A DNA stretch of 64,000 bases from Bacteroidales bacterium. Lineage in GTDB: Bacteria > Bacteroidota > Bacteroidia > Bacteroidales > UBA3663. The notes beneath the pieces were generated by a model. That model had not been told where the DNA came from. It made no database searches and worked only from the letters and a program-made list of their open reading frames with translations. Location: assembly GCA_045627785.1 (NCBI GenBank), contig JAZQOF010000004.1, forward strand, positions 117,948 to 181,947. The letters are read 5' to 3'. Below, in pieces: positions 46,499-54,651 of this stretch; position 1 is the first letter of the stretch, and the number at the start of each line of letters is the position of its first letter. A program made the translations under genes and the position numbers.

Positions 46499-46541
46499 TG
46501 CAAAACGTCCAGAAAAAGAGGTCAAAAATATGCAAAACGTC
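46499..46541 (+). promoter_or_regulatory. Tandem TGCAAAACGTC elements (32 bp apart)
   Basis: Exact 11-mers start at 46499 and 46531. The proximal copy starts 72 bp upstream of the -7 box at 46603. Confidence 0.5.
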
Positions 46542-46602
46542 TTGAATTTATGATTTCGCGAAAAAAAGTGCAAAATTTATGATGTAATAATAATTTATTC
46601 CT

Positions 46603-46610
46603 TAACTTTG
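46603..46610 (+). promoter_or_regulatory. -7 box (TAACTTTG) for cassette 1
   Basis: It matches TAnnTTTG and ends 42 nt before the ATG at 46652. Confidence 0.5.
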
Positions 46611-46651
46611 TGCATATTTTAATATACATCAATTTTTAATTTTTTACTAAA

Positions 46652-47185
46652 ATGAAGAAATTCTTTTCTATTTTCAGTGTTATGGCATTAGTGGTTGCGG
46701 CTATGTCATTCGTATCTTGCAGCAAGGACAGTGATCCTGTTGTTGAAGAACCAACAAAGCCAGTAGATAATAGTAAGTCTGCGTATTACTCTTTGACTGT
46801 AAATGAATCATATTTTGAGTATGGAGATGTTATTCTTACCCTAAATAAAGACGGCGAGGAAAAAGATTATTCTTTCCTCGAAAAAGCAGAGAAGTTGAGT
46901 GATTCTGACTTAAGTGATTGGTTTGGAGGTGTAAAGACTCCAGCACGTGTAGGTGAAGGTAAAATTTTTTACGAGAAATCAGCAAAATTTACTGTAAATT
47001 TTGTCTTGTCAGACGAAGGTAAGAAGAAAATCGAAGCTGCTCCTGATGAACCTTTTGGATTAGGAACTATAGTTGCATTTGATGGTCGAACCACTGGCGG
47101 CATGCAAGAAATGCTTCTTAAGGAACTCGAAGGGTGCTTAGGTAACATAAATAAAGAAGGTGTTTACAATCGCACAGCAAATTAA
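46652..47185 (+). CDS. Small lipoprotein, paralog 1 of 3 (unknown family, cassette partner of C10 protease)
   Basis: 177 aa with a lipobox (MSFVSC followed by SKDSD). It is paralogous to the genes at 49887 and 60359. The three share the signal peptide and an FVL(S/T)DEGKK..EA motif. Confidence 0.75.
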   Translation: MKKFFSIFSVMALVVAAMSFVSCSKDSDPVVEEPTKPVDNSKSAYYSLTVNESYFEYGDVILTLNKDGEEKDYSFLEKAEKLSDSDLSDWFGGVKTPARVGEGKIFYEKSAKFTVNFVLSDEGKKKIEAAPDEPFGLGTIVAFDGRTTGGMQEMLLKELEGCLGNINKEGVYNRTAN

Positions 47186-52075: not shown

Positions 52076-52124
52076 AACACTATAAAATAGTATATAATTT
52101 TTATCATTTCCTATATATAACATA

Positions 52125-54560
52125 ATGAAAAAAGGTTTATTACTTCTATCTCTTATACCTTCTGCACTCCTGGCTCAGACCATCGGAGTGGAAGATGCTC
52201 AGAATAAGGCTTTGCAGTTCCTGCAAGGTCAGTCACAGACACGTGCGTCACAGCGTGAGGTGCAGCTCAAGCTTGCCTATACATCTAAGTCGGGTGATGA
52301 GACATACTACTATGTCTTCAACAACGCCGCCGGTGGCTATGTCATCATGGGCGGTGACGAGGCTGCAAAAGAAGTACTCGGCTATGGTGAGACAGGAAGT
52401 TTCGACTATGCCCGTATCCCAGACAATATGCGTTGGTGGCTCGGTCAGTATGACGCTCAGATCAGTCAGGCTATACGCGAGGTCAAGGCAGGTACCAACA
52501 AGATTGTTCGTCATCCACAGACACGTGCAGAGCGTGCTGATATACCTGTCATGCTCACAACTAAATGGAATCAGAAGAAACCTTATAACATGCAACTGCC
52601 TACATCACAGAGTGGTGAAATAGAATACCCTACAGGATGTACGGCAACTGCAGTAGCGCAGATAATGAACTATCATCGCTGGCCAGACACAGGTGTTGGT
52701 TCATATACGCTTGACACATTATATTACGGTCATAAGTTCACAGCTGACTTCGAGAACACACACTATGACTGGGAAGCCATGGCTGACACTTACGAGGATT
52801 CTTACAGTGGCACACGAGAAGAAATTGCTGTGGGTACTCTGATGTATCACGTTGGTGTAGCGATTAATTCGAAATATGTGAATTCTGAGGCAACTTCTGC
52901 CTACAGCCAAGATGCAGCGAGAGCTTTGGCTGAACATTTCAGATACAACAAAGGTATGTCTTTATTATTTCGTGGCTGCTTTAATGACTCGGAATGGGAG
53001 ACGATCGTATATAACGAACTGAGTGCGAAACGCCCGGTGCTCTATTCCGGAGCCCCAGATAGTATCTTGGGACATGCATTCGTGTGCGACGGCTATAAGG
53101 ACGGACATTGGCACATCAATTGGGGTTGGTCTGGCTTGTGTGACAACTACTTCCTGCTTACTCCGACCGACACAGAAAATGCCTTGCAGCCAGGTGGTAC
53201 TGGAACTGGCGGTGGTGAAGAAGATGAGTCTTATACAATTAATCAGACTATCATTACTGGCATATCTCCAGATCCTGACGGGAACACACTATATAAGAAA
53301 TCGATTTTAGGTTATAATCAAATATTGGATAAAAACCTGGTCGTTGGCTGTGATTCTGTCATTTTGAATATGAACTTTCAAAATCTCGGTATCAGAGAAG
53401 AGACGTTCGAAATCCGATACAAATTGGTCAATGTCGAAGATCCTGATGATACACATCTCCTCGACTATTCAGCCTCGTTCAATCTTGAGTTCCTTAAATA
53501 TACATACATAACTGCTAAGCTCTATGTACCAGAAGGTGTTAGACAAGGTGCTGTTTATGATATCATACCTATGTTTAAGGATGAGAATGGAGAGTGGCAG
53601 CAGACACAGAAAGAGCCTACTGATTATTTTGAAAGATTAATTATTGCCGACGAATTTACACTCACGAAGCCTCTCAACGTCAGAAGCGATGGGCTTATTT
53701 GTAATGATGTCTTCTACGATGTTTCATTCGCAATAAAGAATCTTTCAGACAGTACATTGACCTGTCCGTTGGCATTAAACATTTACCCGTCTGTAGATGG
53801 GAATCCCGACCCTGTAGATTATTTTGATCTAGGAGAGATCTCATTAGCTCCAAACGAGGAGAGAGAGATCATTGTCGGATCTGATGACTTACATTTTGGT
53901 GATCCTCTGGAATTAGGTAAATTTTACAAGGTTAAGCTTGAAAACTACATAGAAGGCACGCTTCTCTCGTCATTCAGTTGCTTAATTGTTGATTCTATGC
54001 CTATTTCCTTGACTTTGCCAGAGATGGGATGGACGACCTTTGCGATACCTTACGATAATGAGATTCCGGAGGGATTGAAGGCTTATAGTGTTGCTTATGA
54101 TAAAGATGAAGACTCGATAGTTCTTGAAGAGCAGGATTTCCTTCGTATGAATTGTGCTTACCTGATACATGGCGTTCCTGGTAACTATCAGTTTGTAGGA
54201 CCAGACACTTCTTTTGAAGAATATGCCAACCTTAAGTCACTATTCTCACTCAATGAAGAAGGTCCTCTTACTTACACAAATTGTTATGTGTTGGATCAGC
54301 GTGATGGCATCGTAGGTTTCTATAGGATCCAAGAACCGACACCGCTCGGTAAATATGAAGCATTTTTAGTCTCAAATTCTTCCAAAGACGAATTTCCTAT
54401 CCAAGATCCTGATGCAGATGATCCAACATCCCTACATCAGATCATCACTCCTGGTACACCTGTCCACACTCGTATCTACGACCTCAATGGACGTATCATC
54501 AATACTGATATCAAAGGATTCGTGATCCGGGACGGAAAAGTCTTTATAATGAAAAAATGA
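52125..54560 (+). CDS. C10 family cysteine protease paralog with T9SS sorting domain
   Basis: 811 aa with a signal peptide. The catalytic Cys is in GCTATAVAQIMNYHRWP and the catalytic His in GHAFVCDGYKDGHWHINWGW. The Por tail is RIYDLNGRIINTDIKGFVIRDGKVFIM. Confidence 0.9.
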   Translation: MKKGLLLLSLIPSALLAQTIGVEDAQNKALQFLQGQSQTRASQREVQLKLAYTSKSGDETYYYVFNNAAGGYVIMGGDEAAKEVLGYGETGSFDYARIPDNMRWWLGQYDAQISQAIREVKAGTNKIVRHPQTRAERADIPVMLTTKWNQKKPYNMQLPTSQSGEIEYPTGCTATAVAQIMNYHRWPDTGVGSYTLDTLYYGHKFTADFENTHYDWEAMADTYEDSYSGTREEIAVGTLMYHVGVAINSKYVNSEATSAYSQDAARALAEHFRYNKGMSLLFRGCFNDSEWETIVYNELSAKRPVLYSGAPDSILGHAFVCDGYKDGHWHINWGWSGLCDNYFLLTPTDTENALQPGGTGTGGGEEDESYTINQTIITGISPDPDGNTLYKKSILGYNQILDKNLVVGCDSVILNMNFQNLGIREETFEIRYKLVNVEDPDDTHLLDYSASFNLEFLKYTYITAKLYVPEGVRQGAVYDIIPMFKDENGEWQQTQKEPTDYFERLIIADEFTLTKPLNVRSDGLICNDVFYDVSFAIKNLSDSTLTCPLALNIYPSVDGNPDPVDYFDLGEISLAPNEEREIIVGSDDLHFGDPLELGKFYKVKLENYIEGTLLSSFSCLIVDSMPISLTLPEMGWTTFAIPYDNEIPEGLKAYSVAYDKDEDSIVLEEQDFLRMNCAYLIHGVPGNYQFVGPDTSFEEYANLKSLFSLNEEGPLTYTNCYVLDQRDGIVGFYRIQEPTPLGKYEAFLVSNSSKDEFPIQDPDADDPTSLHQIITPGTPVHTRIYDLNGRIINTDIKGFVIRDGKVFIMKK

Positions 54561-54571
54561 TAGAATGAAAT

Positions 54572-54651
54572 AATTAAGGAATGAAAGAATGTAATAATTA
54601 TATTATAAAAAAATAACAAATACAGCCGAAAGAAAATCTTCTTTCGGCTGT
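54572..54651. repeat. Hairpin-containing intergenic repeat, copy A (also a bidirectional terminator)
   Basis: AATTAAGGAATGAAA leads to ACAGCCGAAAGAA AATC TTCTTTCGGCTGT, a 13-bp stem at 54622-54651. Related copies lie at 55361 and 60921. Confidence 0.75.

Follow-up and report, generated by a model that had tools for sequence, protein, structure and literature searches.

Why does one gut bacterial chromosome carry the same kind of lipoprotein gene and secreted protease gene twice in a row, and what ties these genes to one another? The question is raised by a 64-kb stretch of contig JAZQOF010000004.1 from a Bacteroidales bacterium (the window, meaning the whole stretch of DNA that was analysed). 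In this window, two tandem cassettes are each headed by a promoter element built on the 11-mer TGCAAAACGTC, and each contains a small lipoprotein gene and a gene for a C10 cysteine protease. An open reading frame (ORF) map with translations was used for gene coordinates. Together with motif and domain scans, it located at the given positions every feature that an earlier, sequence-only reading had named. Our results indicate that the locus, on the chromosome of an uncultured gut Bacteroidales, is probably an array of co-regulated cassettes that encode secreted and surface hydrolases, and that this array recombines and varies among strains. This view builds on the anatomy of the locus, its domain identities, catalytic residues and motif positions, and on strain variation and shuffling among related contigs. 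The array and its decayed third copy are made up of the following features, with lengths in amino acids (aa), nucleotides (nt) or base pairs (bp).

46499-49691, + strand: cassette 1, consisting of promoter element, lipo1 and C10-1.
46499-46509 and 46531-46541, + strand: the two TGCAAAACGTC copies of the cassette 1 element, with a 32-bp period.
46603-46610, + strand: -7 box TAACTTTG of cassette 1, Bacteroidota-type, placed 61 nt past the proximal repeat; the lipo1 ATG follows 41 nt later.
46652-47185, + strand: lipo1, a 177-aa lipoprotein of an uncharacterised family (subtype A1), with the lipobox ...SFVSC followed by SKD.
47226/47253-49691, + strand: C10-1, a protease of 821 aa from GTG 47226 or 812 aa from the likely ATG at 47253.
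49735-54651, + strand: cassette 2, consisting of promoter element, lipo2, UshA-like nucleotidase, C10-2 and a closing hairpin.
49735-49745 and 49766-49776, + strand: TGCAAAACGTC and TGCATAACGTC of the cassette 2 element, with the -7 box TAAATTTG at 49838-49845.
49887-50426, + strand: lipo2, a 179-aa lipoprotein of subtype B.
50441/50447-52075, + strand: UshA-like 5'-nucleotidase lipoprotein of 542-544 aa, opening at TTG 50441 and with its likely start at ATG 50447.
52125-54560, + strand: C10-2, an 811-aa pre-pro-protease with the architecture of C10-1.
About 54615-54651, + strand: GC-rich hairpin ACAGCCGAAAGAA...TTCTTTCGGCTGT closing the array, with related copies at about 55399-55439 and 60928-60963.
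60277-60335, + strand: promoter remnant before lipo3, sharing 88% identity with 49807-49865 and containing the -7 box TAACTTTG (60308-60315).
60359-60889, + strand: lipo3, a 176-aa lipoprotein of subtype C.
60890-60963, + strand: deletion scar, in which about 20 nt of a nucleotidase gene start (CTTGTTCATGATGGCGAGGA) are fused to a copy of the post-C10 terminator hairpin.

The shared architecture of the two cassettes confirms that the lipoprotein-C10 unit was duplicated in tandem. The genes within a cassette are separated by short gaps (67 nt in cassette 1; 20 and 49 nt in cassette 2), and no terminator lies between them. A third, decayed cassette had also been proposed at 60359, and here lipo3 is indeed followed by a precise deletion scar. 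Positions 60874-60922 reproduce the end of lipo2 and the start of the nucleotidase gene, to about nucleotidase codon 6, and the sequence then goes straight over into a copy (60928-60963) of the terminator that follows C10-2. Because the sequence behind lipo3 is a lipo2-nucleotidase junction followed by a hairpin copy, its reading as a scar is correct.

The element that heads the cassettes was enriched in the window, where TGCAAAACGTC with at most one mismatch occurred 9 times against 1.5 expected, a number reached by 0 of 100 shuffles. Two further promoters in the window carry it.

43292-43302 and 43324-43334, + strand: TGCAAAACGTC pair of the operon for a 354-aa and a 628-aa protein, with the -7 box TATATTTG at 43396-43403.
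57153-57163, + strand: single TGCAAAACGTC of the PSD-like/S28 operon, with the -7 box TAACTTTG at 57225-57232.

In all four element-bearing window promoters, a TAnnTTTG -7 box stands exactly 61 nt downstream of the proximal 11-mer (43324, 46531, 49766 and 57153), and three of the four have a second TGCAAAACGTC copy 31-32 bp further upstream. By its sequence the box is of the Bacteroidota sigma-A type, starting 30-42 nt upstream of the ATG in these promoters and in the lipo3 remnant, which is without TGCAAAACGTC repeats. When the window was combined with the related contigs L001-L012, which served as comparison loci, a spacing of 61-62 nt between element and -7 box was found in 16 promoters. 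This fixed geometry across promoters indicates that the element is genuine and under positional constraint, which is what an activator site would be expected to show, and TGCAAAACGTC may accordingly mark an activator-dependent class of promoter. An extracytoplasmic function (ECF) sigma promoter, as the string AAC...CGTC might suggest, was ruled out because the 31-32 nt repeat spacing is wrong for it and a normal -7 box follows. A scan of metagenome contigs for the repeat pair returned 19 loci, all of them unrelated tandem repeats without a -7 box at the right spacing, and a literature search for the 11-mer gave coincidental primer matches only.

The element had been described as dedicated to the protease cassettes, and this part of the description has to be dropped. 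It also heads the 354-aa/glycoside hydrolase (GH)-like operon, the PSD-like/S28 operon and genes in related contigs; an AAA_14 gene, the gene of a 761-aa lipoprotein, a gene for an outer-membrane protein beta-barrel and an AraC/TPR regulator gene are among those that it precedes. The occurrence of the same promoter element before a GH-like gene points to nutrient foraging, and the array might serve in nutrient scavenging through the degradation of protein and nucleotides. We propose that a portable promoter module, with one or two TGCAAAACGTC copies placed 61-62 nt upstream of a Bacteroidota -7 box, would head each cassette. The fixed position of the element offers a concrete handle on the regulation of secreted hydrolases in an uncultured lineage.

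Proteins of about 600 aa with an N-terminal signal or lipobox, TPR and a C-terminal AraC-type helix-turn-helix (HTH) are encoded at 14558-16342 (- strand) in L011 and at 737-2542 (- strand) in L008. The promoters of these TPR-AraC genes carry palindromic TGCAAAACGTC variants of their own (L011 16400-16452, L008 2598-2646), and the genes are neighboured by a protease cluster in L011 and by a 33%-identical lipoprotein homologue in L008. Judging from this proximity, the protein with TPR and AraC-HTH is a candidate trans-factor for TGCAAAACGTC.

The composition of the array differed between closely related strains. The gene orders of the comparison loci are as follows.

L001, conspecific with the window (GyrA 99%, flanking gene 99%): GH-like, lipoprotein, C10, toxin-antitoxin (TA) modules, AAA_14, S28, lipoprotein; one cassette and no nucleotidase.
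L012, syntenic with the window: lipoprotein, C10, lipoprotein, C10, lipoprotein, Fic, Na/H antiporter, PSD-like; two cassettes and no nucleotidase.
L002: lipoprotein, nucleotidase, C10.
L003/L004/L011: C11, C10, C10, lipoprotein, 761-aa protein.

The members of the cassettes also appeared in changing combinations. Subtype A1 lipoproteins with 97% identity stand before C10 genes that share only 49% identity in their variable regions, and the same is true of subtype B lipoproteins with 99% identity. When the window is compared with L002, identity is 98% for the nucleotidase, 49% for the flanking lipoproteins and 78% for the C10 proteins. Six lipoprotein-then-C10 pairs were found in the window, L001, L002 and L012, and the adjacency is lost in more distant homologues, where C10 proteins at 42% and 37% identity stand alone and a lipoprotein at 33% identity is without a C10 gene. 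Such an array could arise if recombination, unequal or homologous, took place between C10 genes, through their near-identical 5' halves, and also between promoter modules; this would produce duplications, deletions such as the lipo3 scar, and new combinations of lipoprotein, C10 and nucleotidase genes among strains.

The assignment of both proteases to family C10, made beforehand from sequence, was well supported by the domain searches. In Pfam, Peptidase_C10 scored 202 and 207.5 bits (cut-off 26; E 1e-59 to 3e-61), and the Inhibitor_I69 prodomain 85.8 and 86.5 bits (cut-off 25; E 2e-24). The closest PDB sequences to the catalytic domain were interpain A (E 5e-50) and SpeB, and the Cys/His dyad aligned with that of both enzymes. 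The catalytic Cys lies in PTGCTATAVAQ, aligned with ATGCVATATAQ of SpeB, and its motif reads GC[TA]ATA across the paralogues; the catalytic His lies in GHAFVCDGY, aligned with GHAFVIDG, and NWGW is kept in both paralogues. C10-1 consists, in order, of an SPI signal peptide, the I69 prodomain, the C10 catalytic domain (GC..., GHAF, NWGW), three immunoglobulin (Ig)-like domains and a 43-aa tail resembling a short C-terminal domain (CTD). C10-1 and C10-2 are 69% identical overall, with 88% in the pro and catalytic regions, 51% in the variable part of about 400 aa and 76% in the last 45 residues. An AlphaFold model of C10-2 residues 382-811 (mean pLDDT 88) contained three beta-sandwich domains, a disordered acidic linker and a short hairpin tail. 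Neither Pfam nor NCBIfam matched the C-terminal 463 aa, and Foldseek returned generic tandem Ig/FnIII-like matches for the C-terminal region (RbmA, transglutaminase beta-barrels) that were uninformative about function. Taken together, the protease is a SpeB-like C10 zymogen, encoded behind a lipoprotein gene of about 177 aa, that may be exported by Sec via its SPI signal peptide, kept latent by its own I69 prodomain, extended by the Ig-like domains and passed by the short CTD to the type IX secretion system, or T9SS, for surface attachment or release.

The tail of these proteases had been read as a Por C-terminal sorting domain. No canonical T9SS CTD (Por_Secre_tail/TIGR04183) was matched in Pfam or NCBIfam, even when isolated tails were searched at E up to 10. 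The tail (...DDPT/SLHQIITPGTPVHTRIYDLNGRIINTDIKGFVIRDGKVFIMKK) measures 43 aa from the predicted cleavage site to the C-terminus, and by inspection it contains a DPT/SL cleavage motif, YDLNGR as motif B, 6 residues, KGFVI as motif D and GKVFIMKK as motif E. The short CTD described in Prevotella intermedia is 40-55 aa long, with a PT/GI-type cleavage motif, a motif B with Tyr, Gly and a basic residue, at most 6 residues to motif D (G-x-[Y/N]-I), a basic motif E and a predicted minimal sheet (Ye et al. 2025, PMC11969387). Since the tail fits this published short CTD, the former assignment stands in a modified sense, as a T9SS-type short-CTD tail; the canonical Por_Secre_tail does not stand. When the window ORFs of 150 aa or more were compared, the three peptidases (C10-1, C10-2 and S28) were the only ones with this tail. 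It is kept, at about 43 aa, in more than 100 clusters of C10 homologues from gut Bacteroidales metagenomes (proteins P0088-P0207), with the consensus PT/S..., Y-[DN]-L-x-G-x-[RK]..., KG-[LF]-V-I-x-[ND]-G-K-x...K, and a T9SS_plug gene lies near the 37%-identical C10 homologue in L010. C10 proteases also appear among listed T9SS cargo. The C10 proteases of the window may be exported by the T9SS. The short CTD has so far been reported only for Prevotella intermedia, and the more than 100 gut C10 clusters suggest that it is widespread; as standard HMMs miss it, the T9SS secretomes of gut Bacteroidales are probably under-predicted.

An intact UshA-like lipoprotein was confirmed in cassette 2 only. 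Its gene, the middle one of the cassette, encodes a lipoprotein signal and the Pfam domains Metallophos and 5_nucleotid_C, and the metallophosphoesterase motifs NDVH, GD, GNHE, H and GHYH were read intact in the sequence. The protein fell well short of each NCBIfam equivalog cut-off (for UshA, 132 bits where 600 are required) and is therefore assigned to the UshA-like family but to no particular substrate. When the co-occurrence of lipoprotein and nucleotidase with C10 was looked for in related contigs, it was found in L002. The idea of a three-gene module was borne out to the extent that the order lipoprotein-nucleotidase-C10 recurs there; as a fixed unit it was not, with the nucleotidase absent from the syntenic L012 and the conspecific L001. 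By these comparisons, the nucleotidase is an optional, exchangeable passenger.

A protease and a 5'-nucleotidase on one surface could instead form a host-interaction or virulence device, in which the protease would degrade host defence proteins and the ecto-5'-nucleotidase would make immunosuppressive adenosine. Some pathogens have C10 enzymes (SpeB, interpain A, PrtT/periodontain) and surface 5'-nucleotidases as virulence factors, and in NCBIfam the nucleotidase came closest to Nt5e and to the surface nucleotidases of streptococci, with scores that all stayed far under the curated cut-offs. However, the host is an uncultured fibre-degrading gut Bacteroidales of commensal type, with GH9, GH43, GH3 and GH31 enzymes also encoded in the window and close relatives in horse faeces. 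Its nucleotidase is dispensable among strains, and the same promoter element heads the GH-like gene and the S28 peptidase. Moreover, the C10 homologue in L002 (6797-9223), the sole other three-gene copy, lacks the catalytic Cys (GP for GC) and His (SAAF for GHAF) and is likely a pseudo-protease. The virulence module suggested earlier found no specific support, and we consider it very improbable.

The lipoproteins of 177 and 179 aa do form an uncharacterised family, as had been thought. Lipo1, lipo2 and lipo3 are 47-49% identical over the full length and about 40-45% in the mature part, with a nearly invariant signal peptide and lipobox, and subtypes A, B and C are about 40% identical to one another. 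The residues after the lipid-modified Cys (C-S-K-D-[SN]-[ND]-D) resemble the Bacteroidota signal for lipoprotein surface export. An exact-sequence lookup of lipo1 gave no match, and a word-indexed search gave 12 clusters, all metagenomic. A HMMER profile search found 78 cluster representatives, 24 of them below 1e-10 and nearly all of about 170-200 aa, and the signal/lipobox region of these members matches the search profile. No significant Pfam family was found on the 10 family representatives scanned, and the window lipoproteins matched nothing in Pfam or NCBIfam. A scan of GTDB contigs with the lipoprotein alignment, using signal-peptide patterns, located one locus, in a Bacteroidales metagenome-assembled genome (MAG) from horse faeces. 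In addition, two giant proteins, P0020 (1721 aa) and P0041 (1938 aa), contain 13 and 6 separate stretches, respectively, that match the lipoprotein profile at residues of about 36-99, which suggests that part of the lipoprotein fold may recur there as a repeat unit.

One explanation for the place of this gene beside C10 genes is that the lipoprotein serves the neighbouring protease as a dedicated inhibitor or chaperone, shielding the envelope from early-activated enzyme in the way of the Bacteroides inhibitors Bfi and Bti. The six lipoprotein-then-C10 pairs agree with this, as do the short gaps without a terminator and the position of each close family member beside a C10 gene or its relic. 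In Bacteroides, C10 genes are co-transcribed with genes for small lipoprotein inhibitors, which lie upstream or downstream (PMC3462683). The structural comparisons did not agree with it. The AlphaFold model of lipo2 was confident (pLDDT 89-98 per 10-residue block from residue 41) and of mixed alpha/beta type, with 9 strands and 5 helices in a mature protein of about 152 aa, against the mainly beta Bfi and Bti of 116-138 aa. The best Foldseek match of this model in the PDB reached E 0.013 and TM 0.39, with no staphostatin, chagasin or cystatin among the matches, and a profile search of PDB sequences with the lipoprotein gave signal-peptide matches only. Comparison of the lipoprotein family with the C10 prodomain by hhalign yielded a probability of 0.2% and E 0.27, and comparisons with the C10 catalytic and C-terminal alignments were negative. 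With no relative found by Foldseek, PDB profile or hhalign, the lipoprotein is not of the Bfi/Bti or Spi type by the tests used.

The linkage between the two genes was also looser than a dedicated partnership would lead one to expect. The lipoprotein subtypes are 40% identical, as opposed to 77-88% for the catalytic regions of their partners, and they have changed places among C10 alleles. No such neighbour accompanies the C10 homologues at 37-42% identity, and the 33%-identical lipoprotein homologue of L008 lies on a 4.8-kb contig without a C10 gene. The protease has its own I69 prodomain, and lipoprotein copies persist intact as orphans. The analogy with the B. fragilis Bfi inhibitor that had been drawn is positional only, with no relation to staphostatins, Spi/I69 or a PDB fold. 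As a whole, the idea of an inhibitor is unsupported, adjacency within one narrow clade being all that it draws on, and we regard a dedicated inhibitor or chaperone as rather doubtful. Should an action of the lipoprotein on the protease be borne out, Spi and the staphostatins would be joined by a third, unrelated guard of C10/C47 papain-like proteases, with a new fold.

The orphan copies bear on another explanation, namely that the lipoprotein is functionally independent: a diversifying, surface-exposed member of the regulon that travels with the promoter module, with C10 and nucleotidase genes inserted behind it by recombination. Distant family members keep the TGCAAAACGTC element and the AraC/TPR neighbourhood (L008, L011) and not C10. 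Lipo3, copy B of L001 and copy C of L012 are intact orphan genes. The paralogues, at 40-49% identity, differ widely around a core that is conserved, and the residues after their lipid-modified Cys resemble a surface-export signal. However, each close family member is still beside a C10 gene or scar, surface exposure is a prediction, and no database suggests a function. We consider this independence possible, if somewhat less than probable. In the recombining array that we favour, the lipoprotein would be an envelope-anchored accessory expressed together with the hydrolases.

Several observations weigh against our preferred explanation of a recombining, co-regulated array. The close relatives all belong to one narrow clade, so the lipoprotein-C10 adjacency may be a single ancestral arrangement and need not reflect selection. 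A foreign genomic island was excluded, with a GC content of 0.41-0.46 not distinct from the rest of the window; as the composition shows no sign of such an island, the term "mobile" can cover recombination within the locus only. Promoter activity, operon boundaries and activator dependence are predictions from sequence. The TPR-AraC candidate gene is absent from the 64-kb window and is linked to the array by proximity and by the motif copies in its own promoter on two contigs. No T9SS gene is present in the window either, and no curated T9SS model matches the tail.

A bolder version holds that T9SS-secreted C10 proteases have partners anchored in the envelope, acting as inhibitor, chaperone or tether, that the lipoprotein founds this new and structurally unprecedented family, and that TGCAAAACGTC is the operator of an uncharacterised TPR-AraC transmembrane regulator of a secreted-hydrolase regulon. 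We think this unlikely. If true, it would add a new layer of regulation and quality control for short-CTD T9SS cargo in gut Bacteroidales. In other respects, the locus represents ordinary paralogue expansion and recombination among genes for surface and secreted proteins.

The neighbouring genes are arranged around the array as follows.

43433-44497, + strand: 354-aa secreted protein of unknown family, under the TGCAAAACGTC element.
44525-46411, + strand: 628-aa secreted GH-like protein, in the same operon as the 354-aa gene.
54721-54993, - strand: YafQ-type toxin, with a small upstream partner ORF at 54990-55250, between inverted hairpin copies.
57264-58532, + strand: PSD-like lipoprotein (PF02666, E 1e-39, C-terminal) with an N-terminal extension of about 190 aa.
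58625-60265, + strand: S28/S37-like serine peptidase ending in a short-CTD-like tail (IYDLNGRRMNGVPERGIFVQKGKKVIK).

The GH-like character of the 628-aa protein comes from its 99%-identical product in L001, which carries precomputed GH_cat/GH_C Pfam hits; this L001 orthologue is apparently without residues 239-373, through deletion or an assembly artefact. A homologue of the 354-aa protein precedes a C11 peptidase in L003/L004. With its gene upstream of that of the S28 peptidase, the PSD-like lipoprotein is exported in a context that is unusual for the PSD fold. As to the host, its GyrA is 99% identical to that of L001, 75% to those of Bacteroidales MAGs and 63-65% to those of Prevotella.

The position after the array is occupied by the YafQ pair in the window, by RelB/PIN modules in L001 and by a Fic gene in L012. 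That different toxin-type modules occupy an equivalent position suggests a hotspot for their insertion. Downstream of the terminator copies, AT-rich sequence of about 200 bp (55361-55620, 60889-61300) is repeated in direct and inverted orientation, with short repeats of the AATTAGGAACG type. An inverted repeat (61183-61223/61255-61295) lies within the AT-rich region, and a 42-nt tandem duplication at 62152-62235 overlaps the 5' end of a DUF6261 gene (61301-62344, - strand). An Rfam scan of 43-61.5 kb gave no match.

The closest known counterparts of the array are Bfp/Bfi of B. fragilis and Btp/Bti of B. thetaiotaomicron. Like the window, they contain SpeB-like C10 proteases with a propeptide in clustered paralogues (PMC2873492, PMC3462683), and a C10 gene stands beside that of a small exported protein, often a lipoprotein, with coupled transcription established in Bacteroides. 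However, Bfp and Btp are lipoproteins of about 47-53 kDa in hosts reported to be without PorT, whereas the window proteases have 811-812 aa, an SPI signal, three extra Ig-like domains and a short tail. Bfi and Bti, in turn, are predicted to be beta-rich and staphostatin-like, in contrast to the mixed alpha/beta lipoprotein of the window, in which no staphostatin similarity was detectable.

The T9SS-linked C10 proteases of oral Bacteroidales (P. gingivalis PrtT/periodontain and interpain A of Prevotella intermedia) are similar to the window proteases in catalytic domain and prodomain. According to the reports on them, they have canonical CTDs and no partner lipoprotein encoded upstream, whereas the window proteases have the short tail and lie in a duplicated cassette. 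Compared with the short CTD of P. intermedia, the window tail agrees in length, motif order, B-D spacing and a minimal beta-sheet after a flexible linker, and differs in motif D, with Val (G-x-V-I) where the published motif has Tyr or Asn. It occurs in the more than 100 gut C10 clusters, where secretion and cleavage are predicted from sequence. The window nucleotidase has both domains and all motifs in common with UshA and the surface 5'-nucleotidases, but its placement between lipoprotein and C10 genes has been seen in two contigs only. Clusters of C10 paralogues coupled to small exported proteins, and C10 proteases secreted by the T9SS, are already known. What the window adds to these systems is an unrelated lipoprotein family, an optional nucleotidase, a promoter element at a fixed position, and short-CTD-like tails widely outside P. 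intermedia.

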